Part shown: one piece after another, positions 15,572 to 63,986 of the stretch
How the letters are laid out: each line of letters begins with the position of its first letter
Numbering within the stretch: the first letter of the stretch is position 1
Source of the DNA: Ostreococcus lucimarinus
Taxonomy: Eukaryota
Assembly: GCA_000092065.1 (NCBI GenBank)
Contig: CP000595.1
Strand: one strand, 5' to 3'
DNA length: 64,000 nucleotides
Notes under the pieces: model-generated
Database searches by the model: none
Told to the model about the DNA's origin: nothing
Seen by the model: only the letters and a program-made list of their open reading frames with translations
Translations under genes and position numbers: made by a program

Positions 15572-16879
15572 TCAGATCGCGAAGGTGCCGACGGGTTCTC
15601 GTTGTCGATATTTGCGCGCTCGAAGGTGCCTCTGGTAGCACGCCGTGCACACGGTGTGTTCGCCAGACTTGCGCCACTGCGATGATTGCTTCGTGCGGTC
15701 GCACGACGGACAGTGCCGCGGCGGCGCGGAGCTCGGCTTTTGCGCCTTTTTCCCGCCGTTTTTGTGCGGCGGCATGCGCTTGCGAGGCGCGCCGGCGGCG
15801 TTCAAATCCGGGTGATTCGCGCGGTCGCTGAAACACTGGTGACACGTCCACACGGGTTCGCCCTCGGGCCCGGTTTCTTTCGATCGGTACCATCGCACGT
15901 CGGGCTCGGTGCGCTTCGCCTTTCGGCAATCCGCGCACGTTCGTTCGTCGCGCAGTTTCCGCATGCGATTCTTCGTTCGGTGATAGCACTTGTGGCAGCA
16001 CTTCCCCCCCGCCGCCGCGTCCTCCGACGGGTCGCTCACCAACAGCATCCCGTTCGCGGAATTCCCGCACTTTTCGCACCGCGTCAGCGCGCCCTCGTTC
16101 TTTCTCCGCTCCTTCCGCGCGCGCTCGTAGCACTTCGCGCACCGCGTCCCGAGCGCGCCGCCCTCGCGCCCCGTCGCCGCGGTCCCCCGCGCGGGATCGT
16201 CCGCCGCCACGCGCACCCACTCCCCCCTGCACTTCGTCTCCCCGCACTCCACGCACGCCCGCACGACGCCGTCGACGACGTGCTCCGTCGTCGCGTTCCT
16301 CTTTCTCCGCTCTCTCTGAAAGCACGCCTTGCACCGAAACCGCGTCGCGTCGCCCCCCCCGTCATCCATCCTTCGCCATCTCGACGTCTTCTCCGCCCCG
16401 CACGTCTCGCACGCCCGCCCATCCGTCGCCGGTGGTGCGCGCTTCTCCGTCCTCTGCCCCGGCGTCCCTCGCGCGCCCTCCGCGGTCGCCGCCGGTCGTT
16501 TCCGCGGCGTCCCGGTCGCGCGTCCCGGTCGCGCGTCGAGCGACCCGAGTCTCGCCGTCGTCTCGCGCGTCGTCGCCTGCACGCGCGCGCGATCGTCGCT
16601 CGGCGCGCGCACCGAAGCGACGAGCGAGCGCTCGCGCGTCGCGCGGCGCGACATCGTTGTCGACGGATCGCGCGCCGGGGCGTCGAGAGTCGCGCGCGTC
16701 CGTGTGTGGATCGCGCAACGGTCGAATGCGATCGATGGATGCGATCGATGCGATCGATCGATCGATCGACGCGAGGCGACGGCGCGATGCGGATGATTCG
16801 GACGCGCGAATCCCATCGTTCGCGCGCGCGCGCGTTCGCGCGTTCGCGCGTTCGCGCATTCGCGCGCATGCACTCGCAT
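15572..16879 (-). CDS. multi-zinc-finger protein with about five GATA-like C-x2-C-x17-24-C-x2-C fingers
   Basis: Repeated modules such as CPSCDRTKQSSQWRKSGEHTVCTACYQRHLR (exact C-x2-C-x17-C-x2-C spacing with T…W-R, as in GATA fingers), CETCGAEKTSRWRR…CKACF, CEKCGN…CHKCY, CADCRKAK…WY…CHQCF. The N-terminal part is low-complexity, so the start is uncertain. Confidence 0.55.
   Translation of the reverse strand: MRVHARECANARTRERARARTMGFARPNHPHRAVASRRSIDRSHRSHPSIAFDRCAIHTRTRATLDAPARDPSTTMSRRATRERSLVASVRAPSDDRARVQATTRETTARLGSLDARPGRATGTPRKRPAATAEGARGTPGQRTEKRAPPATDGRACETCGAEKTSRWRRMDDGGGDATRFRCKACFQRERRKRNATTEHVVDGVVRACVECGETKCRGEWVRVAADDPARGTAATGREGGALGTRCAKCYERARKERRKNEGALTRCEKCGNSANGMLLVSDPSEDAAAGGKCCHKCYHRTKNRMRKLRDERTCADCRKAKRTEPDVRWYRSKETGPEGEPVWTCHQCFSDRANHPDLNAAGAPRKRMPPHKNGGKKAQKPSSAPPRHCPSCDRTKQSSQWRKSGEHTVCTACYQRHLRARKYRQREPVGTFAI
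16728..16772. repeat. (GATC/CGAT)-based microsatellite; a (CGCGTTCG)x3 run follows at about 16838–16872
   Basis: gcgatcgatggatgcgatcgatgcgatcgatcgatcgatcgacg, read directly from the sequence. Confidence 0.8.
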
Positions 16880-16926
16880 TCATCCGAGGGGGACGACGAC
16901 GGACGACTGTGTCGTTGTATCATCGG

Positions 16927-17097
16927 GTACGAAGCCCTTGGTATATGACCCAGTGCGTCGTATACGGTCACGGTTTTCGCTATGTATCGAAAATCAGGGT
17001 TACGAAGCCCTCGGTATGTGACCCAGTGCGTCGTATACGGGCACGAATATCGCTGTGTATACGGACACGAAAATCAGGGTTTAGGGTTTAGAAGATG
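16927..17097. repeat. two tandem copies of a roughly 75–80-bp AT-richer element, terminating in a (TTTAGGG)2 plant-type telomere-like motif
   Basis: Copy 1 (16927–17001) and copy 2 (17001–17085) both read acgaagccc[t/c][t/c]ggtat[a/g]tgacccagtgcgtcgtatacgg…gaaaatcagggtt; copy 2 is followed by tagggtttag. The element sits in the spacer between the divergent GATA-like (minus) and Sel1 (plus) genes. Confidence 0.8.
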
Positions 17098-17183
17098 CCG
17101 CCGACGCGCGACCGCGGCGACGCCGACCGTCGCGCGCATCGCGACGCGCGACGCGCGACGATCGCGCCGTCGCGCGACGCGCG

Positions 17184-19385
17184 ATGGCGCGGGCGTCGAC
17201 GCGCGACGCGCGCGACGCGCGCGACGCGCGACGGCGCGACGGCGCGGTGCGTCGACGCGGGAGACGCGCGGTGACGGCGATGACGACGCTCGCGATGATG
17301 ACGCTCGCGGTGACGCGCGCGCGCGCGGACGGCGCGACGACGACGACGACGACGACGACGACGGATCGCGCGAGTCGCGAGAGCGCGATGGGCGACGCGG
17401 GAGGGCCGAGGGATGGGATTCCGCACCCGGCGGCGGCGGCGGCGCGCGAACGCGAACGCGAACGCGAGGACGAGGACGCGGCGCGGACGACGGGCGCGAA
17501 AACATCGCGAGTGGACGACGAACGGAAAAAGTACGTCGATGATTTGCTCGAGGAGGAGTCGGTGGACGATCGAAGGCGGGCGCGGTCGGCGAGCGCGTCG
17601 AGGGCGTCGAGGGCGCGAGCGAGACGCGCGGCGGCGGAGTGGATCGAGGCGTACGTCGAGGGCACGGCGACGAGAGACGCGAGCGGGTGGGACGACGGCG
17701 AGGCGTGGTTCGCGCTCGGGCACGCGCGCAGGTACGGGTTGATCGAGGGACGGGAGATGGACGAGGGGGGGGCGATGGAGTGCTTGCGGCGCGCGGCGGA
17801 GCTGGGGGACGCGGCGGCGCACGACGAGTTGGGGTTCACGTACGCGAGTGGATGGGACGGCACGCCGCGCGATGGCGCGAAGAGCGTGCTGCACTATTAC
17901 TTCGCCGCGAACGCGGGGAGCGTGCGAGCGATGATGGCGCTGGGGTATCGACACAAGCACGGCATCGACGTTCCCGAGTCGTGCGAGACGGCGGTGTTGT
18001 ACTATCACGAGGCGGCGAAAATCGTCGTGGAAGAGGCGGCCAAACGCACGCCGGGGGTGCTGCCGTTTCAGATTGAAAAACACCGTCTCAGCGCGGAGAT
18101 GAGCGGGAGTAATCTCGCGGCGAGGCGCGAGCGGGATTTGGTGCAGTATTATCGTTACAGCGCCGACATGGGCAACGTGGACGCGCAGGTGACGATGGGT
18201 CGGTTGTACTCGCTCGGCGCCCGCGGGTTGCGCAAAGACGTCGGCGCCGCGCGTAAATACTTGACGGACGCCGCGAACGCGGGAGACGCGACGGCGATGG
18301 CAAATTTAGGAAACATGTACGCCAACGGGTTCGGCGTCGACGTCGACAACGCCACGGCGTTGCACTGGTTTCGCAAGGCGGCGAAGAAAGGCAACGCCAT
18401 GGGGCGGTACGGGCTCGGGTACATGACGCTCGCCGGTCACGGCGTGGCTCAAGATCACGCGTTGGCGGTGCAGTACCTGAACCAAGCCGCTGAGCAAGGG
18501 CTTTCCGACGCGCGATACTTTCTCGGCGTCTTGCACTTGCGAGGCATCGGCGTCAAGCAAGATTTCACAAAGGCGTATCATCACTTCAACATCGCTTCGC
18601 ACGTCGGGCACGAGGTTGCGACGTATAATTTGGCGATGATGCAGTTGAACGGCATGGGGTTTCCGTCGTCGTGCGCGTCCGCGAGCGCGTTACTGAAACA
18701 ACTCGCCGAACGAGGACACTGGGCGACGCCGATGGAGCACGCGTACGCGGCGTACATGCGTCGTGACTACCGCGGCGCGCTCTTGCGTTACATGAAAATG
18801 GCAGAGATGGGAATCGAGATCGCTCAAGCCAACGCCGCGTTCTTGCTCGAACAAAGACTCGGTGACGAAGGTCGATTCCGCGAGGACACTCAGGTGAACC
18901 CAGAGGCGCCGAGCACGGCGACGCGCGCGCTCCACTACCATCGACTCGCGGCGACGCAAGGTAACGTCAAGTCGCTTCTTCGCATCGGTGACGCGTATTA
19001 CTGCGGCAAAGGCGCGAACGTCTCGCTCACGAAATCTATCGCCGCCTATCGCCAAGCGAGCGAACAGAGAAATCCGCACGCGATGTTCAATCTCGCGCAC
19101 ATGCACGAGCACGGCATCGGCATGCAAAAAGACTTGCACCTCGCCAAGCGTTACTACGACATGATCCTCAACAACGCCCCAGACGCCACCATCATCGTGC
19201 ACCTGGCCCTCAAAAAGCTCGTGCTCCATCAGTGGATCATCGACAACAAGGACACCATCTTGCGCGTCGCCAAAGAAATCCACGCGAGTCCGACGGCGCA
19301 ATTCGTCGACTTCGTCGTCGTCGTCGGCGCCGCGGCGTTGCTTTGTTTCGTCCTTCTCCTTCGCGTCGGACTCGCTCGCGGGTGA
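17184..19385 (+). CDS. Sel1-repeat protein, SEL1L/Hrd3-like ERAD component (multiple Sel1 repeats plus a C-terminal transmembrane anchor)
   Basis: Many Sel1 (TPR-like) repeats (…AMMALGYRHKHGIDVPESCETAVLYYHEAA…, …MANLGNMYANGFGVDVDNATALHWFRKAAKKGN…, …AMFNLAHMHEHGIGMQKDLHLAKRYY…) and a C-terminal hydrophobic helix (FVDFVVVVGAAALLCFVLLL). The start is probably at the internal MTTLAMMTLAV signal peptide near 17280. Confidence 0.8.
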   Translation: MARASTRDARDARDARRRDGAVRRRGRRAVTAMTTLAMMTLAVTRARADGATTTTTTTTTDRASRESAMGDAGGPRDGIPHPAAAAAREREREREDEDAARTTGAKTSRVDDERKKYVDDLLEEESVDDRRRARSASASRASRARARRAAAEWIEAYVEGTATRDASGWDDGEAWFALGHARRYGLIEGREMDEGGAMECLRRAAELGDAAAHDELGFTYASGWDGTPRDGAKSVLHYYFAANAGSVRAMMALGYRHKHGIDVPESCETAVLYYHEAAKIVVEEAAKRTPGVLPFQIEKHRLSAEMSGSNLAARRERDLVQYYRYSADMGNVDAQVTMGRLYSLGARGLRKDVGAARKYLTDAANAGDATAMANLGNMYANGFGVDVDNATALHWFRKAAKKGNAMGRYGLGYMTLAGHGVAQDHALAVQYLNQAAEQGLSDARYFLGVLHLRGIGVKQDFTKAYHHFNIASHVGHEVATYNLAMMQLNGMGFPSSCASASALLKQLAERGHWATPMEHAYAAYMRRDYRGALLRYMKMAEMGIEIAQANAAFLLEQRLGDEGRFREDTQVNPEAPSTATRALHYHRLAATQGNVKSLLRIGDAYYCGKGANVSLTKSIAAYRQASEQRNPHAMFNLAHMHEHGIGMQKDLHLAKRYYDMILNNAPDATIIVHLALKKLVLHQWIIDNKDTILRVAKEIHASPTAQFVDFVVVVGAAALLCFVLLLRVGLARG

Positions 19386-25172: not shown

Positions 25173-25482
25173 GTGCGTGGGAAAGCGTTTTTCTTTTTTT
25201 CGTGCTCGAGCGCCGGTGGTGTTCTGTGATGATTGAGTAAATTTCTCTGAATTCGTTGACGAAACTACTCTGTCTGCCGACTTCCCTCTGAGAACGCCAC
25301 CGAAAAGCTTTGAGCGCGCGACTTCCATTCATTTCTGTGATGATTGAGTAAAGTTCTCTGAATTCATTGACGAAACTACTCTGTCTGCCGACTTCCCTCT
25401 GAGATTTGAATGGTCGTGACGCGGATTGACTTTTTCACGCGCAACCTCGACTGACAATACCTCGTTTCCTTTCGCAACACAG
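25173..25482 (+). other. spliceosomal intron (GT…AG, 310 nt, phase 0) of the Ca-ATPase gene; contains an internal 109-bp tandem duplication
   Basis: Donor gag|GTGCGT at 25173, a polypyrimidine tract, and acceptor tttcgcaacacAG| at 25482. Splicing restores the invariant P-type ATPase PEGLPLAVT motif (…VPE|GLPLAVTLALA…). The unspliced frame runs into a stop at 25229. Confidence 0.85.
25224..25404. repeat. about 1.7 copies of a 109-bp direct repeat inside the intron (two near-identical 72-bp cores)
   Basis: ttctgtgatgattgagtaaa[t/g]ttctctgaattc[g/a]ttgacgaaactactctgtctgccgacttccctctgaga occurs at 25224–25295 and 25333–25404, about 97% identical. Confidence 0.85.
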
Positions 25483-27438
25483 GGCTTACCACTCGCCGTG
25501 ACGCTCGCTCTGGCATTTTCCGTCAGGCGCATGCTCGAGTTGTCCATGCTCGTCCGCGTCCTAGGCTCCGCCGAAACCACAGGCGAAGTCACGGCTTTGC
25601 TCATCGACAAGACTGGGACGGTGACTGAAAACGACCAACGCGTTAATCGCGCGTGGATCGCGGGTGTAGATATCGGACCTCTAACGAGCAAAAGCGTGAC
25701 GTGGGCGAGTGAAATTGCAAACAAGACGCGAAACGAGCCAACGCTCGATCCTCGCGTGGTGAAACTCCTGTCGATTTTGCTCGCAATGAACTCGACCATA
25801 ACCTACGATGCCAAAGGGCAAATTTTGCGAGGAGCAAAGGCGGAAATCGCGCTGTTACGATTCGTTAACTCAATGAACAACGACGAATTGTTCGTCGCTA
25901 CGATTCGTAAGTACTTCCCTTTGGTCAAGCTCTTTCCATTCAACACTTCCAGAAAGCGCATGTGCACGCTCTTCACACTTCGCGACGGCATCAACGACGA
26001 CGAAATGGGAGACGTGATCGTTCGTGCGGTCACGAAGGGCGCATCTCAAGACATGTTGAACTTGTGTTCATCTGTCATGGACGAAAACGGCGCCCATCAT
26101 CCACTCGACGCCGCTACGAAGGATCAGCTGTCGAAAAAGTTTCTCGAATGGCAAGATGACGCGGAAAGGGTATTACTCGTCGCGTATAAGGACATCGAAC
26201 GCGATCTCATCACAACGCATGAAGCGACGAATATTTGCAGTCGAATGAGCGCCAGCGACGCTGAATCCGACCTCACGCTCGTCGCAGCAATCGGGATGTG
26301 CGACCCTTTGAGGCCAGAATCCACGAAGAGCGTGCGTTTATGTCGCCGCTCTGGCGTCGCAGTGAAGATGGTCACTGGGGATTCGTTGTCCACCGCTACC
26401 GCGGTGGCAAGGAGATGCGGAATACTCGATGAAAAAGACATGAGCACCGAAGCAACGATGACGGGTGAAGCGTTTCGAGAAGCAATTCGTGGAGAAGAGG
26501 GTCAAGAAATCGATCAATCGAAACTCGATGCCATTTGGCCGAATTTGCGAGTGCTCGCTCGCGCGTCGCCACAAGACAAATTCATCCTTACCGATGGTAT
26601 ACGCAACACAAAGCTATCGGGACGAAAAGAAGTTGTAGGGGTTGTAGGCGACGGCACAAACGACGCGCCCGCACTTCGACGCGCCAATGTCGGTTTCGCT
26701 TTAGGCTCGGGGACGGAGTGCGCCAGAGATGCAAGCGATATTGTTCTTCTGCAGGACGATTTTTCTTCCGTCGTCGACGCCATTCGTTACGGCAGGAACG
26801 TGTTTGAATCAATCGAAAAGTTTATCACGTTCCAACTGACGGCGAATTGTACGACAATCATTCTGTCCACCGGCTGCGCACTTGTGTATGCGAAGAGCCC
26901 GCTGAACGCCATCGAGCTATTGTTTGTCAATCTTGTCATCGATTCGTTGGCAAGCTTAGCGCTCGCGACGGATGAGCCGAGCGACGACGTGATGCGACAG
27001 CCTCCGTCAGATGCGAGCAACCTCATCACGTCAACCATGCGGCTCAATATCTTCACCCAAGTTTCGTATCAGCTCGCCGTCATGGCGTACTTGCTCAACG
27101 AATTCGGCCCGGAAGACACCCAAATCTACTGTTGCTTCGTCTTGCTTCAGCTCGCGAATCAAATCAACTGTCGCAAAGTTACCACGGAGGTCAACGTTTT
27201 CAAGGGTGCGACGAAGAACAAGCTCTTCGTGAGCCTCTTGACGAGCGAGATTTTGCTCCATGTCGCCATCGTGCAAGCGGGCGGCGCGGTGTTTCACACC
27301 TCTCCGCTCAATGCGGGAGAGTGGCTGCGATGCACCGCGTTCGCGCTCGGGGCGATTCCTCTGCGCGCATTGTTCGTGACATTTTTTGTTTCACTCTTCG
27401 CCGCGTTTCGGGAAGAGGACGCGTTGCACCATCACTAG
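25483..27438 (+). CDS. plasma-membrane-type Ca2+-transporting P-type ATPase, exon 2
   Basis: PEGLPLAVT (TM4), phosphorylation motif IDKTGTVTEN, VTGDSLSTA (TGD), GDGTNDAPAL hinge, and C-terminal transmembrane helices. Confidence 0.9.
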   Translation, partial: GLPLAVTLALAFSVRRMLELSMLVRVLGSAETTGEVTALLIDKTGTVTENDQRVNRAWIAGVDIGPLTSKSVTWASEIANKTRNEPTLDPRVVKLLSILLAMNSTITYDAKGQILRGAKAEIALLRFVNSMNNDELFVATIRKYFPLVKLFPFNTSRKRMCTLFTLRDGINDDEMGDVIVRAVTKGASQDMLNLCSSVMDENGAHHPLDAATKDQLSKKFLEWQDDAERVLLVAYKDIERDLITTHEATNICSRMSASDAESDLTLVAAIGMCDPLRPESTKSVRLCRRSGVAVKMVTGDSLSTATAVARRCGILDEKDMSTEATMTGEAFREAIRGEEGQEIDQSKLDAIWPNLRVLARASPQDKFILTDGIRNTKLSGRKEVVGVVGDGTNDAPALRRANVGFALGSGTECARDASDIVLLQDDFSSVVDAIRYGRNVFESIEKFITFQLTANCTTIILSTGCALVYAKSPLNAIELLFVNLVIDSLASLALATDEPSDDVMRQPPSDASNLITSTMRLNIFTQVSYQLAVMAYLLNEFGPEDTQIYCCFVLLQLANQINCRKVTTEVNVFKGATKNKLFVSLLTSEILLHVAIVQAGGAVFHTSPLNAGEWLRCTAFALGAIPLRALFVTFFVSLFAAFREEDALHHH

Positions 27439-44439: not shown

Positions 44440-44530
44440 TTATGATCCACGCACTAAATATACGATATAGTGCTAAAGTACCCTAGAATATGATAAATTA
44501 TAAAACCCTAGGAACAAAAACAGCCTGGCG
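44440..44530 (+). promoter_or_regulatory. AT-rich promoter island upstream of ALS with two direct telo-box-like motifs (ACCCTAGAA and AAACCCTAGG)
   Basis: …gtaccctagaatatgataaattataaaaccctaggaac…; the AT-rich island (about 44330–44520) contrasts with the 68% GC background. Confidence 0.4.
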
Positions 44531-44636: not shown

Positions 44637-46670
44637 ATGCGACGCACCGCCGTCGCGAGCGCGCCCGCGCGCGCCCCCGCGTCGCGCGCGGCGCCGCGGA
44701 CACACGCCGCCAATCGCAGCGCCGCGTCGACGAAATTCGCGCGCGCGCGCCGCGCGCCGCGCGCGGTTCGCCAGCCCGACGCGTCGGAGTACGTCGATCC
44801 GTCGCAGTTCACCGAACTCGAGCTGTCCACGGCGCAGATGACGGCGTACGCGAGCAAACGACCGAGAGGGCAGTTCGCGTCGAGGTTCGCGGACGACGAG
44901 CCGCGCAAGGGGTCGGACATCCTGGTCGAGGCGCTCGAGCGCGAGGGCGTGGACTGCGTGTTCGCGTACCCGGGAGGGGCGTCGATGGAGATTCATCAAA
45001 GCCTGACGAAGAGCGCGACGGGGATACGGAACGTGCTGTGCCGACACGAACAAGGGGAGGTTTTCGCGGCGGAGGGATACGCGAAGGCGACGGGTAAGGT
45101 GGGCGTGTGCATCGCGACCAGCGGACCGGGGGCGACGAATTTGGTCACGGGGTTGGCAGATGCGCTGTTGGACTCGGTGCCGATGGTGGCGATCACGGGA
45201 CAGGTGCCGCGACCGATGATCGGGACGGACGCGTTTCAAGAGACGCCCATCGTGGAGATCACGAGACAGATCACGAAGCACAACTATTTGGTGATGAACG
45301 TCGAGGAAATTCCGCGAATCGTGCGCGAAGCGTTCTTTTTGGCCGCTTCAGGACGTCCGGGCCCGGTTTTGATCGATATTCCAAAGGATGTGCAGCAGCA
45401 GTTGGCGGTTCCGTATTGGGAGCCCAAGGTTTCGCTCAACGGTTACTTGAGCCGTCTGCCCGCGCCGCCGACGTCGCCGCAGCTCCAACAAGTTTTGGAT
45501 TTGATTAAGGACTCAAAGCGTCCGGTGGTGTACGCCGGCGGTGGATGCTTGGACGCCGACTTAGAGCTGGTTGAATTCTGCCGCGCGACGGGGATTCCCG
45601 TGACGAACACGCTCATGGGTCTCGGTACGTTCCCGCAGAGCGACGATTTGAGCCTGAGCATGCTTGGCATGCACGGTGCGGTGTATGCCAACTATGCGAT
45701 CGACAGCGCTGATTTGTTGCTCGCTTTTGGCGTGCGATTCGACGATCGTGTGACCGGTAAGTTGGCGGAATTCGCCAAGCGCGCCGCCATTGTGCACATC
45801 GACATTGATCCGGCGGAGCTCGGTAAGAACAAGAAGCCGTTCTGCTCCATCTTTAGCAACATCAAGCCCGCGTTGAAGACTTTGAACAAGTTGATCGCGC
45901 TCGAGAAGGATATGCCCGATTTCTCGGAGTGGCGCGCGGCTATTGACGTGCAGCGCAAAAAGTTCCCGTTTCCGATTCCCGAGCAAGTCGGCGACGTCAT
46001 CGCTCCGCAGGCGGCGATCGAGCTGTTGTGCAAGATGACCGAAGGTAAGGCGATCATCTCCACTGGTGTCGGTCAGCACCAAATGTGGGCGGCTCAGCAC
46101 TACAAGTTTGACGAGCCTCGCAACTGGCTCACGTCTGGTGGTTTGGGTTCGATGGGCTTCGGCTTGCCCGCCGCCATCGGCGCCGCCGCGGCGCGTCCTG
46201 GCGATCTGGTCGTCGACATCGACGGCGATGGCTCGTTCGTCATGAATATTCAAGAACTCGCGACCTTGCACGCGGAAAACTTGCCGGTGAAGTGCTTCAT
46301 CTTGAACAACCAGTACCTCGGCATGGTCGTGCAGTGGGAGGATCGATTTTACAAGGCGAATCGCGGTCACACGTACCTCGGCTCCCCGAATGACGATTTC
46401 CAAGTCTCCAAGGAAGAGGCGCACATTTTCCCCGATTTTGTCACCATCTCACAGGGCTTCCGCGTCCCCGCCGAACGCGTGATGCGCATGAGCGATCTCG
46501 AAGGCGCGATCAAGCGCATGATTGAAGCCGACGGTCCGTACTTGCTCGACGTCATGGTGCCGCACGTCGAGCACGTGTTGCCCATGGTCCCCGGCGGCGG
46601 TACGTTCGCCGACACCATCACCACGGGTGACGGGAGAAGCCCGGAAGAGAAGGACATGAAAACCTTGTAA
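44637..46670 (+). CDS. ALS: acetolactate synthase (acetohydroxyacid synthase) catalytic subunit, plant-type, plastid-targeted
   Basis: Near-identity to plant ALS blocks (…[18 protein letters not shown]…, …[17 protein letters not shown]…, …[19 protein letters not shown]…, TPP-binding GDGSF…N motif). The start is the ATG at 44637 after the AT-rich leader (track ORF from 44490). TGTAA overlaps the stop at 46666–46670. Confidence 0.95.
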
Positions 46671-57890: not shown

Positions 57891-60800
57891 TTATTCGCGC
57901 GCGGTCGAGGACGAAGCGCCGCCGAAGCCGAAAAATTTGCCCAGACGGGACGCCGAGGAGGCGGCTTCGGCGCGCTCGCGATCGGCTCGGCTGGGAGCGC
58001 GCGCGAACGCGCGAGGTCGGGCGACGCTTTCGTCGTCGACGACGGTCGTGGTGACCTTGCGGACTCGAGCGATGCGCTCGCGCTCGGGCTTTGGCGGCGG
58101 TGGCGAAGATGGGGTGAAAGCGCGTGGTTTGGCGATGGGCGCGTCGTCGTCGACGCGCCTCTTGGTCACCTTGCGAACGCGAGCGACGCGTTGGCGTTGC
58201 GCCTTCTCAATTTTGGGTTTGGTGAACGCCGGAGCGGACGGGTAGTCCTCATCGTCGATGTCATCGTCGAGTGCTTCGTCGGGGAAGCACTCGGCGCAGT
58301 AGACGTTGCCGTCTGGACCGGGCATGACGTCCTCCGGTTCCATCTCACGCGAGCAGTTCGGACACTCGAAGGGCGCCGGCGCCTTGGACGAAGCTTGTCT
58401 TGGCGCTTCGTCCATCTCAGGTTCTTCCTCGGGTACGCACCGCGGGCAGTAATCCTTCCCGCCTGGACCCGTGATGATATCGTTCAACGTACACGGTGCG
58501 TCGCAATTCGGACACGTGGGGATTGAGCGTTTTCGCTGTGGCGACCAACATTTCGGACAGAATTGCCCACCGTCGACCTTGATGACGTCTTCGGGCTCGC
58601 ACGGCGTCTCGCAGTTCGGGCACACGAACGGCTCCGGCGCGCAACGCGGGCAGTGTTTCTTGCCGTCGACGTCGCTGATCGCGACTTCTTCGGGCTCGCA
58701 CGGCGTCTCGCAGTTCGGGCACACGAACGGCTCCGGCGCGCAACGCGGGCAGTGTTTCTTGCCGTCGACGTCGCTGATCGCGACTTCTTCGGGCTCGCAC
58801 GGCGTCTCGCAGTTCGGGCACACGAACGGCTCCGGCGCGCAACGCGGGCAGTGTTTCTTGCCGTCGACGTCGCTGATCGCGACTTCTTCGGGCTCGCACG
58901 GCGTCTCGCAGTTCGGGCACACGAACGGCTCCGGCGCGCAACGCGGGCAGTGTTTCTTGCCGTCGACGTCGCTGATCGCGACTTCTTCGGGCTCGCACGG
59001 CGTCTCGCAGTTCGGGCACACGAACGGCTCCGGCGCGCAACGCGGGCAGTGTTTCTTGCCGTCGACGTCGCTGATCGCGACTTCTTCGGGCTCGCACGGC
59101 GTCTCGCAGTTCGGGCACACGAACGGCTCCGGCGCGCAACGCGGGCAGTGTTTCTTGCCGTCGACGTCGCTGATCGCGACTTCTTCGGGCTCGCACGGCG
59201 TCTCGCAGTTCGGGCACACGAACGGCTCCGGCGCGCAACGCGGGCAGTGTTTCTTGCCGTCGACGTCGCTGATCGCGACTTCTTCGGGCTCGCACGGCGT
59301 CTCGCAGTTCGGGCACACGAACGGCTCGTCTTCCGGTACATCCTCCCGCAAGCACTCGTTGCAATATTCCAAATCATCCGGACCGATGACGATTTTATTC
59401 GGCGGCTCTACGGTGATTCCGCAATTTGGACAGTTGACATCCTTTTTGCGAGGACAATTTGGCGCTTCATGATCCGTCATACCGCAGATGGAGCAGCGCG
59501 AATCCGGCATGACGAGGTTCTTGCGCGCCAACTCATCGCTCGGCTCTTCGAGCACCGCATGCACACTCGGCGACTCCGCGAGCGGTTTTCTCTCTTGTGC
59601 TTGTTTGAATTGTGCTTGAAGCGCTTCCGATGGCTTTACGGTTGGATTCGCGCGGAAGCAGAAATCGCCAAACGCGAGCATAAACTTCTTCGCGTCCAGC
59701 CGGCTCCCTTGGCAGCACAAGTACCCGTCAGGTTTTTCATCGATGGCGTGCACCCAGCCATGTCGAGCGCCGTGGTACACCCAATCAGGAGTCGACGTTG
59801 AGAAATCGCTGTAGGTTCGGAAGACCAATTCACCAAACTTGTTCAATGGACTCTCGGCACCGACGGCCCACATTGTTGCAGCCTTGAACTCCATCACTCC
59901 CATGCCATCCTTGTCGGTGAAAGCCTTGTACACAGTGCTCACAGCGCGGATGTCCTCGTCAGACGATTTGCCTTGCTTCTTCATAGCCGTCGCAAATCTC
60001 GCTTGTGCTTCGTATGCTTCGACGATATGATGCGCCTTAGGGCGAAGTATGCGTTCAATCAGCCAGCGCGTTGCGCGAGCGACGCCTCTATCTGTCAATG
60101 GCACGCGATGACCGTAGATGATCCAAGCCATGAAGACGAGGGAAGTGAGGAATTCATCCAGGTGCATTCCCCAAGCGTGCTTGATACGCAGCTCCAACCT
60201 CGGACCTTCGCTCGGACATAGCGATCCTTCAACTGAGCCAGTCTCTCGATCGAGTGTGAGACACTTGGCGAGAAGCTCGGGCGCCTTGACGGTATCGAAT
60301 ACCGATCGAACGACGGCTGAGAGCTGATTGTACTGCGAGTTCGGTAGTTTGTCCTCAATCTTGCAACTCGAGATGAGGTACATGAACTGACGGTAAGACA
60401 TGAGCAAGTGATCATCCGCACCGACGCGCGTTTCGTTGTCACTCGGACCAGACGGAATCGACGCGTATGTTTTGAACAAACCCTCCAAAAATGTCCAGTG
60501 ATTGCGAATCTCGCTCCAGACGTAATAGTTGCCATCTTCGGGCTCGAAAGAAGTCAGCACATGGTTCGGTTTGCTGATACCCTTGCGAGTAAGCGGAGCG
60601 GCATCTTGGATGAGCTCCTTACCATTGTTGCGGTAACGCAGAATCGTTCGTTCAAGAGGTTTTGAATTGCTGTCCGCAAGCATTCTGCGCAAGTCGAGCA
60701 CCGTCATTTCCGGATTTTCGTGAACAAGATTAGATTGGAGCACCGGTTGCGCCAACACTGGCCCTTCTTCAATATCCGGTCGAGCGTACATTCGTTCATC

Positions 60801-63800
60801 TTCATCGGGATCCCTTGCCTCTTCTGGGTCATCTTGAAGAATCAACCACGCTGTCGTCTTGGCCAAATTACCGCGGCGGTTCTCGAGCTGCACCTCCGCC
60901 TTCCATTGAAGATTCTCGAGCTTCACTGTGTTGTGAGTGTCGAGCAGCTTGCCTTTGTGCGAGATATCAAATTTACTTCCAGTGACAGCAGGAAGCTCGT
61001 CTTCACCTGCGAACTCGCCCCGATCGCGCATGTCTCGCAATTCTGTGGCGAGCTTGGTGTGAACGCTTGAGACTTCCTCCTTGAGACGAACGGGGACGTA
61101 CACGTTCCATCCTAAATCTCTCGATCGATCCGGGTCTTCTTCCTGAATGATGATGGTTTCTCTCGTACGGAAGTGTCGTTCTCGCTCTTGTTTAATTCGC
61201 GACACCTCTTCGTCGTCTTGCTGGATGACGACGTACAAGTTGCCGTGACGAGCGCAGCGCTCTCCGGGCTCGCATTCGCAGAGGCAACAGAAATCGTCGT
61301 AGACGTCGTCGAGGTCAAGGTGCCACGGCAACACGTCACCGTCTTCATCCTGCGCCTCTGCTTTCGCTTTTGCGAGACTTTCATCGTAAGCATCCCAATC
61401 AGGGTGAATATCACCAAAGTAACCCTGGAACCGAACAAAGTGCGTGCGTCCACTGACTTCGGATGTTTGGAAAAAGAGCTCCTCTTGGTCCAAGTCTGCC
61501 GCGTCGTTCACATCCGTTTGAAAGGCTCTTCGAACGTTGTCAGCTTGTTGAAGTACCTCATACTCAGCGAGTTGCTTCTCTTCGTCCTCCTTCTCTTTCT
61601 CTTGCGTAGCGTGCGACTTCGCACGGGCGAGAGTGGAGTCTCGAAGTAAAAAGCGTTCGACCGACGGGTTGTGAGCGCCTGAGACGCCGCGTAAATCTTT
61701 TTGAGCCTGTCTGTAAAACTTGCGATAGAAGTTGTATCTCTTTTGAATCATCTTATTCTCGATGAAGAGTTGCACTTGTCGATTCATGTCCCGATTGTCC
61801 ACCGCCGCGGCGCGAATCAGGCTTTGACGCACCGGGCGCGAGAGCATCTTGTAGAAAGATTTGGCTCTGTCGTCATGGGTACCCAGAATGGTCTCCACAG
61901 TCTTGTGTCGCCAGAGCGAGCGAATTCCTCGAGCGAATTCCATTCGCAGGTGCATGTCGAAATTACCACTGAAATACAATCCTTGATCACCTTCCGCGGA
62001 CTCAAGCTGAAGAATCGCGCCCGCACTGGGGTTGAGCAGCGAAAGTGTCGGTTTCCATTCGACCCACTTGCGTTCGCGTAGCCACTGCGATGAGCGGTGC
62101 TCACTCACGACAATACTGATGACACGAGCGATAAAATTCTTGTAGGCCCGTCGAAGGTGCCAGTCAGCTCTCTTGAACCATTCCGCGCTGCTATAGGCTT
62201 CGTAAAAAATCCCTGCGCAGAAAACAAAGACAGCCACCGCAATGGTTTGCCACACGGCATTTCTGGCGTTGTCCTTTGTCCTTTGGTTGATGATGTACGA
62301 CACCGGCGCTATTGAAATGACTGAAAGCATCAGTACGAGCACCATGGCGAGCAAATGTAAGCCAAGATACCGTTTTGCTTCGCTCGTTTTAAAAGGTCGC
62401 AAAATGACGGTCGCGAACGACACAGATATTACGAGTAGAGCGGTGAGCGCCTGCACGACACCGTTGCCATTTCTGAGCTCGTAGCCTAGAAGTTGAATCA
62501 AGCACAACGCCAATATTCGTGCCATCTCGTTCACACGATACCAAACGTAGTCATCTGTGAACTGGAACGTTGCAAATCCAATCAAATCTCGTTTCCACAG
62601 CTTTTCCCATCCTCCCATGGCGTACTTTATTACCCAATACATGATGGCAAAGAAACCGATCGGGTACAGAAGCAGGGCGATCAAGGCGAGCGGGAACAGC
62701 TGTTGCCATTTCGTGCTTCCAGTCGTCGATGAGAAATATCCGAATCGCAAGTTCGGCTGCGCACGAATGTACCCAAACTTGTCCGTCACTGAACGATGAA
62801 ATATGAAAAAGTCAAATGTCGCGATGATGACGGCGACATAAGTAATTTGAATGACGTTCAAAATACTTCGAAGCATTAAAACCCATCGCCTTTGACCGTT
62901 GCGAACCACCTCGACACTCGGCTGCGTTTTGATGTAAAATTTACCCCAAATGTAGGCGTACAGCTGTGCGATGCCGTACATCAGCGCAAGTCCAATCGCC
63001 GGCATGGCCATTAATGAGTTCCAGCGTGCCACAAAATCGTATTCAGTCAAACATTCGAGGCCGATGACTTCGGGGTTGAGCTGCAGTATGTAGCATAGCT
63101 GTAGCAGCAAAGTCAAGCCGGGATAATCGTTCCAGCCAAGATTGTATCTCCCAATAATCCCAACTTCTTGCAGAAACACAACGAGCGATAATATACGACA
63201 ATAGACGATGTATCGAAAGCTCTGCTCGTCGATGAGCCAGGGCATCAAAATCGCCGAAAGCATCACCAAGCCGACGCCCGCACCATACAGCGTGTGCCCC
63301 AAAGCAGATCCGCACTTCAAACACTGACCATTGAGACGGTAGTAGCCCGTAACACACGTCTCACACGCGTCGTGAACATATCCCTCTGCGCACTGCACGG
63401 CATCCGCACTCGATCCGCCCGCGGCGATGGCGTCCACTTGCGCCGAGCCAGCGATGCCTTTCACACCGGGACACGCCTTATGGGGGAAGCACTGTCGCAT
63501 GGAGATGGGTTGCTTGTACGAGCGCGTTTCAGGAGACACGACGTAGAAACCAGGCTGCGGATAAGGCACCGTGAGATTCGTCTCAGCACAATACGTCCAA
63601 CGTTCGGGCGCTCCGTAGGAGTCGCTGTACTCTGGGCAAGGAAAGCAATATCCCGGCACGCCGTACCAACCGATGTTGCAGAAACATTGGTCCCTTGACG
63701 TTGCGCCTTGAACAGAGGTACTCCCAGCGGGACATGAAATGCAAGTTTCAAGTCCCGGGGTGTCGGAATAATACCCATTGCTGCATCGGGTACAGAAGCC

Positions 63801-63986
63801 TCGTTGCACGGTTCCGCCAGCCATACCCACCGGGCAGGCACGACAGGTGTGCGAGTTGATGGCGTCGGTGACTTGACCAAGCGGACAAATCGTGCACGTG
63901 CCGTAAGTCTTTGCGTTTGACGCATCACCAACGGCGCTTGCTGACTCTGTTGTGTAACCTAGCGCACAACCAACATGAATATTCAA
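57891..63986 (-). CDS. giant receptor-like multi-pass membrane protein (N-terminus beyond window end): extracellular GCC2/GCC3 (ephrin-receptor-like) Cys repeats, about 10 transmembrane segments, long cytoplasmic region, C-terminal tandem zinc-ribbon array
   Basis: 2031-aa uninterrupted frame, stop at 57891. N-terminal modules C..C..G.Y….C..CP.G…C.C (…[39 protein letters not shown]…), a hydrophobic multi-helix block around 62100–63300, and 7 perfect plus 1 diverged 33-aa CPNC…CPRC repeats; further CxxC…CxxC ribbons flank the array. Confidence 0.8.
58585..59324. repeat. tandem array of 7 essentially identical 99-bp units (plus a diverged 8th) inside the coding sequence of the giant gene
   Basis: The unit …cttcttcgggctcgcacggcgtctcgcagttcgggcacacgaacggctccggcgcgcaacgcgggcagtgtttcttgccgtcgacgtcgctgatcgcga… repeats head-to-tail with no visible mismatches. 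It encodes [33 protein letters not shown] x7 on the minus strand. Confidence 0.9.

Follow-up and report, generated by a model that had tools for sequence, protein, structure and literature searches.

A small, polymorphic tandem repeat abutting a telomere-like run in a divergent promoter of Ostreococcus lucimarinus

The spacer between a GATA-like gene and a Sel1/Hrd3-like gene, located within a 64,000-nt stretch of O. lucimarinus DNA (hereafter the window), behaves as a small VNTR of a promoter with a short interstitial telomeric sequence (ITS) next to it, which is an ordinary feature. Comparison of conspecific haplotypes and of related lineages leads us to regard the repeat as, more likely than not, a private, fast-evolving minisatellite of this Ostreococcus species, seated in the AT-richer core of a divergent promoter, with the telomere-like run at its end being of local origin.

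Anatomy of the repeat and its spacer

The divergent-promoter spacer comprises 529 bp (16655..17183) and extends from the start codon of the GATA-like gene at 16654 (minus strand) to that of the Sel1-like gene at 17184, as delimited by open reading frames, Pfam matches and alignment to a sister lineage (L001), with which both start codons align. GC content is 50.5% in the 200 bp around the repeat and 66-80% in the flanks, in agreement with an earlier note on this DNA that had described an AT-richer island between two divergent genes of these types. The gene assignments made there fared differently. The Sel1/Hrd3-like repeat protein (17184..19385, plus strand, 733 amino acids) was confirmed by Pfam Sel1 repeats at E=1e-47. 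The GATA-like assignment (15572..16654, minus strand) stands but is weak, as this protein, which carries multiple CX2C zinc fingers, matches the Pfam GATA family below threshold (16.8 bits; cut-off, 26.8), and its orthologues give faint PF00320 matches. The ATG closing the interval that the earlier note had singled out (17095..17097, plus strand) is out of frame with Sel1 and opens a short open reading frame only. Because ACG takes its place in one conspecific haplotype (L018), it is evidently no conserved start, and the true Sel1 start is evidently that at 17184.

Two head-to-tail copies of the element, as previously described, lie within the spacer. Copy 1 (16925..17001, plus strand) is 77 nt long including a GGGT lead and has CGAAAATCAGGGTT at its 3′ end, and copy 2 (16998..17081, plus strand) is 84 nt long including a shared GGTT lead and carries a 7-nt insert, ACGGACA. 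The copies are 87% identical over 63 ungapped nt. Their starts are 73 nt apart, whereas the exact 14-mer CGAAAATCAGGGTT, which terminates both, recurs at a spacing of 80 nt because of the insert in copy 2; the element thus falls among VNTRs with head-to-tail units of ~10-100 bp. A 21-mer of the unit occurs exactly twice in 64 kb, against an expectation of 0. Nested within the unit is a 24-nt sub-repeat beginning with GTATACGGNCACG, found on the plus strand at 16960, 17033 and 17057 (span 16960..17080), the last two being directly adjacent; it reaches 2-2.4 copies and is also present, in a different count, in haplotype L017.

The second copy runs into a telomere-like micro-repeat detected by TRF, (AGGGTTT)2.3, which occupies 16 nt on the plus strand (17076..17091) and reads CTAAACCCTAAACCCT on the minus strand. 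Relative to the two start codons, it is placed 93-108 nt upstream for Sel1 and 422-437 nt upstream for the GATA-like gene; it includes an exact telo-box, AAACCCTA, at 17082-17089 on the minus strand, inside the divergent spacer. The telomere-type end reported in the earlier note is therefore present, together with the telo-box on the other strand, but comprises 2.3 units (16 nt) rather than two. The attribution of TTTAGGG telomeres to Mamiellophyceae made there also agrees with the literature (PMC11106453, PMC5455958). In the 64-kb window, this run is the only place with near-matches to two telomere units, compared to 0.02 expected. Perfect heptamer micro-repeats of at least 2.3 copies number eight in the window, one of which is AGGGTTT.

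Elsewhere in the spacer, two microsatellites, (CGAT)n at 16729-16769 and (CGTTCGCG)6 at 16817-16866, differ in length among conspecific haplotypes. A distant lineage (L014, 270-400) carries expanded CCGA/ATGA-type microsatellites at the equivalent place, and the Sel1/GATA spacer is repeat-prone in several lineages.

Structural polymorphism within one species

Scanning an exact 20-mer of the unit against 241 million metagenome records returned four contigs only (L015-L018), all representing the same Sel1/GATA locus. Since these are 97.7-98.7% identical to the window over 6-14 kb, they are best taken as conspecific haplotypes, and together with the window they provided five haplotypes for comparison. 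In L018, CAGGGTTTAGGGTTTAGAAGA comes immediately after a single unit. Two copies are found in L016, with an 81-nt period, joined where CAGGGTT meets CGTGGGGT; L015 resembles L016, with the same period, as far as the contig reaches, and the window shows the L016-type duplication minus 8 nt at the junction. L017, in turn, carries a different and larger duplication with a period of 117-141 nt. Its unit extends across the telomere-like motif to include AGAAGATGC downstream and GACGGACGACTGTGTCG upstream, resulting in two telo-boxes, and its first copy has one extra 24-nt sub-repeat. The duplication junctions share a few bases only (GGGT/GGGGT, GACG).

Both the copy number and the limits of the duplicated unit thus vary among conspecific haplotypes, as expected from the minisatellite reading, one of those offered in the earlier note. 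At least two independent duplications and several indels have evidently occurred within one species. Given the polymorphic copy number and the differing breakpoints, we therefore assign the element to a private, structurally polymorphic minisatellite. Like promoter minisatellites and VNTRs in general, it consists of head-to-tail units of tens of bases in non-coding DNA, varies within the species in copy number and unit boundaries, and shows short junction microhomology and nested sub-repeats. In contrast to classical minisatellites, which have many copies and often a shared core motif, it has one or two copies here; the large unit does not exceed two in the sampled haplotypes.

No further copy of the unit was found in the 64-kb window or, beyond this locus, in the metagenome scan, and the 20-mer had 0 matches in viral contigs, giving no sign of a prasinovirus origin. 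Within reach of these searches, the unit would therefore be private to one locus of one species. As far as the window and the scan show, it is unique in the genome, an outcome that the earlier note had named as telling against its proposal.

Absence of other copies from the window, the viral contigs and the metagenome scan also makes it highly improbable that a mobile-element fragment or a gene for a small structured RNA accounts for the unit, an idea that could draw on the lower-GC island being unlike its surroundings. A dispersed repeat or transposable element was rejected given the single locus and the lack of evident terminal inverted repeats or target-site duplications at the unit. A structured non-coding RNA was likewise discarded: an Rfam scan of 16300-17700 at permissive E-values gave chance-level matches in the CG-rich flanks and none in the repeat, ARAGORN found no tRNA at the locus, and fold energies compared with shuffled sequences on both strands indicated no significant fold (z = -1.17 and -0.43).

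Judging from the junction sequences, the ancestral state would have been a single ~75-nt unit, still seen in L018, that was tandemly duplicated at least twice independently. One event would have produced the 73-81-nt repeat of the window and of L015/L016, and another the 117-141-nt repeat of L017, with the 24-nt sub-repeat inside the unit also gaining and losing copies. The duplications probably came about by replication slippage or by unequal exchange between very short homologies (GGGT/GGGGT, GACG), as homology of a few bases at the junctions is the signature that would be expected of slippage or microhomology-mediated tandem duplication. The unit would simply happen to end in CAGGGTT and to adjoin the 16-nt run. 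The run itself most likely arose on the spot, through a 7-nt micro-duplication like those behind the seven other heptamer micro-repeats of the window or, alternatively, through a small telomerase-assisted repair insertion, and would not be the remnant of a chromosome end. With respect to the promoter, the duplications would change the number and spacing of proximal blocks, namely the TATA-like GGTATATGA, AAGCCCT and, in L017, the telo-box, and ~100 nt before the Sel1 start the telomere-like run would offer one to two candidate sites to a Myb protein that binds telomere repeats.

Several findings weigh against this explanation. An exact telomere-type run of 16 nt is very unlikely under a random-sequence model, and with about 1 in ~1,000 heptamer classes being telomere-type, slippage alone requires a coincidence, which we estimated at ~1% per window, hence a few per genome. 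Moreover, the 16-mer is present in every sampled haplotype that reaches its position, including both duplication copies of L017. Finally, a telo-box upstream of the acetolactate synthase (ALS) gene recurs across genera, which raises the chance that the Sel1-proximal run is bound and matters.

Taken alone, the repeat is of little consequence, adding a further fast-evolving tandem duplication to those of compact algal promoters. In metagenomes, it is of modest use as a structural marker of strains within Ostreococcus populations, and it provides a natural allelic series at the promoter of an ERAD gene, with alleles of a single copy, of two copies, and of two copies that include two telo-boxes.

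Local duplications are frequent in the window. A 72-nt direct repeat at 25222-25293 and 25333-25404 (97% identical, 111-nt spacing) occupies an AT-richer spacer upstream of a gene starting at 25531. The copy at 25333-25404 is 98.6% identical to L001 14056-14127 and hence common to the sister lineage, and 25222-25404 represents a second local duplication in a promoter spacer. A further tandem array (58485-59378), inside the minus-strand open reading frame 57891-63824, has a 99-nt period and at least 7-9 copies. Five of its 300-nt registers are 100% identical, and it corresponds to a 33-amino-acid repeat in a protein of ~1,977 amino acids; the uniform copies suggest very recent expansion, homogenisation or assembly collapse.

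Comparison with other lineages

Orthologous loci from seven other lineages (L001/2, L003-6, L007-10, L011, L012, L013 and L014) were reached through Sel1 homologues, as the window's own Sel1 protein had no exact entry; these homologues are 73-95% identical and, like those of acetolactate synthase (ALS), mostly derive from marine metagenomes. The 90% clusters have Ostreococcus tauri as named member for L012 (Sel1) and L019 (ALS), and O. lucimarinus / O. mediterraneus are named members of an ALS cluster 92% identical to the window, which places the window in Ostreococcus and probably close to O. lucimarinus. All contigs that extend far enough share the window's gene order (PfkB, GATA-like on the minus strand, Sel1, DUF1242, TPR, P-type ATPase). 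The repeat unit is absent from the orthologous spacers of all seven lineages, and so are TTTAGGG and CCCTAAA from -800 to +100 of their Sel1 start codons.

The earlier note had entertained an ITS left by a chromosome fusion or a healed chromosome end, in which case the unit would derive from a subtelomeric satellite and the telomere units would be what is left of a terminal array. The sole support for such a relic is that a tandem repeat adjoins telomere-type units. A synteny breakpoint, which had been suggested as a check, is lacking: gene order is kept on both sides of the spacer in every related lineage, from the sister to those with 73%-identical Sel1 orthologues, and none of them has telomere units here. 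Further, the unit occurs at no other locus in the window or the metagenome scan, and the single-copy haplotype L018 indicates that the tandem state is recent. Instead of long or head-to-head arrays with subtelomeric repeats, there are 16 nt in one orientation. Intact synteny, the absence of TTTAGGG from the relatives' spacers and the short, single-orientation run therefore led us to reject a fusion or healed-end origin, which we rate as barely conceivable. A telomere-like 16-mer in a gene-dense region need not mark a chromosome rearrangement.

The spacer itself evidently turns over fast. Over 14 kb, the window and the sister lineage (L001/L002) share ~93% identity, and BLAST alignment between them is interrupted only at 16657-17122 of the window, six other spacers being aligned throughout. 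Global alignment of the window with L001 is anchored as far as GAGGGGGACGA and resumes ~40 nt ahead of the Sel1 ATG, with scattered similarity only in between. Across all eight lineages, the 8-10-mers common to the Sel1/GATA spacer are CG-rich low-complexity words only, and the repeat is therefore without a pan-lineage conserved site.

That this spacer core is the sole segment unalignable with a 93%-identical sister would also fit repeated breakage and repair. Under such a scenario, telomerase would have added the run as a short ITS during double-strand-break repair, and the duplications would be by-products of a fragile site. At least three independent rearrangements within one species and the exact telomere-type sequence of the run are in line with this, and the insertion of short ITSs where breaks are repaired has been described (reviewed in PMC6410037). 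As in such ITSs, there are few exact telomere-type units in one orientation, at an internal, gene-rich position with no subtelomeric context; the run here, however, has 2.3 units only. A clean insertion would stand out against an "empty site", but none of the alleles or orthologues aligns closely enough to serve as one: the sister spacer cannot be aligned across 16657-17122, and all conspecific haplotypes already carry the run, so that the event itself is unobserved. In addition, the sequence is accounted for just as well if a AGGGTTTAG already in place slipped by 7 nt. We consequently hold a repair-derived origin of the whole structure to be improbable and keep the local minisatellite as the preferred explanation.

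Telo-box motifs at the Sel1 and ALS promoters

A different possibility is that the run is a recently gained telo-box cis element, in which a TRFL-type Myb would bind CTAAACCCTAAACCCT and tune Sel1, the GATA-like gene or both. The spacer would then be a nucleosome-poor promoter core, and the duplications would be tolerated or selected through site dosage or spacing. From the motif analysis we regard this as possible but rather doubtful, and a cis-regulatory role of the Sel1-proximal run likewise as plausible at best. In its favor, the core motif is present exactly in the run close to the Sel1 start, it has a second copy in the L017 duplication, and O. lucimarinus encodes two TRFL Myb proteins as candidate readers (PMC3400083). 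Arabidopsis telo-boxes lie at -60..+140 of the transcription start site (PMC2576244). The motif is also rare. Its two occurrences in the 64-kb window (0.25 expected) both lie in promoter spacers, and ~220 kb of sequence yielded four independent sites, all in spacers: the Sel1/GATA site and three upstream of ALS orthologues. AAACCCTA is thus not a common promoter motif.

Conservation argues in the opposite direction at the Sel1/GATA promoter. The motif is absent from the orthologous spacer in 7/7 other lineages, including the 93%-identical sister, and neither AAACCCTA nor AACCCTA occurs in ~80 kb of other Sel1-region loci; upstream of ALS, by comparison, 3/5 lineages have it. Within the species, the 16-mer is invariant, but the GC-rich flank is equally so, meaning that the run is conserved no better than its surroundings. 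Only 2 of the ~33 spacers in the window contain AAACCCTA, and the two sites point in opposite directions with respect to Sel1 and ALS. As for readers, the known plant proteins (TRB) reportedly originated in Streptophyta (bioRxiv 10.1101/2022.11.23.517682), and coordination of ribosomal-protein genes through telo-boxes is reported to be land-plant-specific (PMC3212954). Compared with the plant telo-box read by TRB/Myb proteins (PMC2576244, PMC3212954, PMC8788455), the site shares the identical core 8-mer, a promoter-proximal position and derivation from the organism's own telomere repeat, but any reader here would be of another Myb type, for example TRFL.

The second site of the window is at 44503..44510 (plus strand), in an AT-rich spacer and 134 nt upstream of the ALS ATG at 44637 (gene, 44637-46670). 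The same 8-mer, in the same orientation on the ALS coding strand, is found at -159 in O. tauri-type contigs (L019-21; L019 9842, L021 7885) and at -306 in a Bathycoccus-like lineage of 49% GC (L024/25; L024 9695), and is the only one in the L019 (13.7 kb) and L024 (22 kb) loci. The remaining two of the five ALS lineages (L022, L026) have no AAACCCTA upstream of ALS. Taking the window's ALS site as the hypothesis, the chance that the only matches of both relatives fall in ALS spacers is roughly 7e-5 (uniform placement) to 6e-3 (intergenic placement only).

The ALS-upstream AAACCCTA therefore looks like a conserved telo-box-type promoter element in Mamiellales, behaving as such across Ostreococcus and a Bathycoccus-like lineage. 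As the motif recurs in two divergent lineages, telo-box-like sites may be functional, and may be read, in Mamiellophyceae. A more general proposal, that telo-boxes are genuine cis-regulatory sites in this group despite the lack of TRB readers, with the ALS site as an old example and the Sel1/GATA site as a newborn one that varies in copy number, appears unlikely to us. If the ALS-promoter recurrence were confirmed genome-wide, the origin of telo-box regulation could move below the land-plant/streptophyte node, and this observation is the more interesting lead compared with the Sel1/GATA repeat.

Other motifs were noticed in the same promoters. The ALS AAACCCTA of L024 is preceded, 14 nt upstream, by an inverted TTTAGGGT. 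The palindrome (T)GAGTCATGACTC is restricted to promoter spacers: two lineages have it between the Sel1 and GATA-like genes (L003/L004 5775-5787, L014 462-474), and in the O. tauri-type ALS promoter it follows the telo-box at a distance of a few bases (L019 9855-9867). The Sel1 spacer of the window lacks this palindrome, which may be a bZIP/AP-1-like promoter element of these algae. Likewise, ATTGGTGGCGT is found in the Sel1/GATA spacer of two divergent lineages (L003 5814; L013 856 and 885) and bears a loose similarity to ATTGGTCCACGTCATC, the unfolded-protein-response element of plants, as would suit an ERAD gene; the idea was dropped for the window, from which ATTGGTGGCGT is absent. Lastly, of six AAGCCCT occurrences in the window, four (16932, 17005, 25481 on the minus strand, and 44532) lie in intergenic DNA, which makes up 10% of the sequence. 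The repeat units account for two of these and the ALS promoter for one (within AAGCCCTGGC, common to L019), and the fourth is ~50 nt upstream of the ATG at 25531; AAGCCCT may, on this small sample, be a promoter motif.
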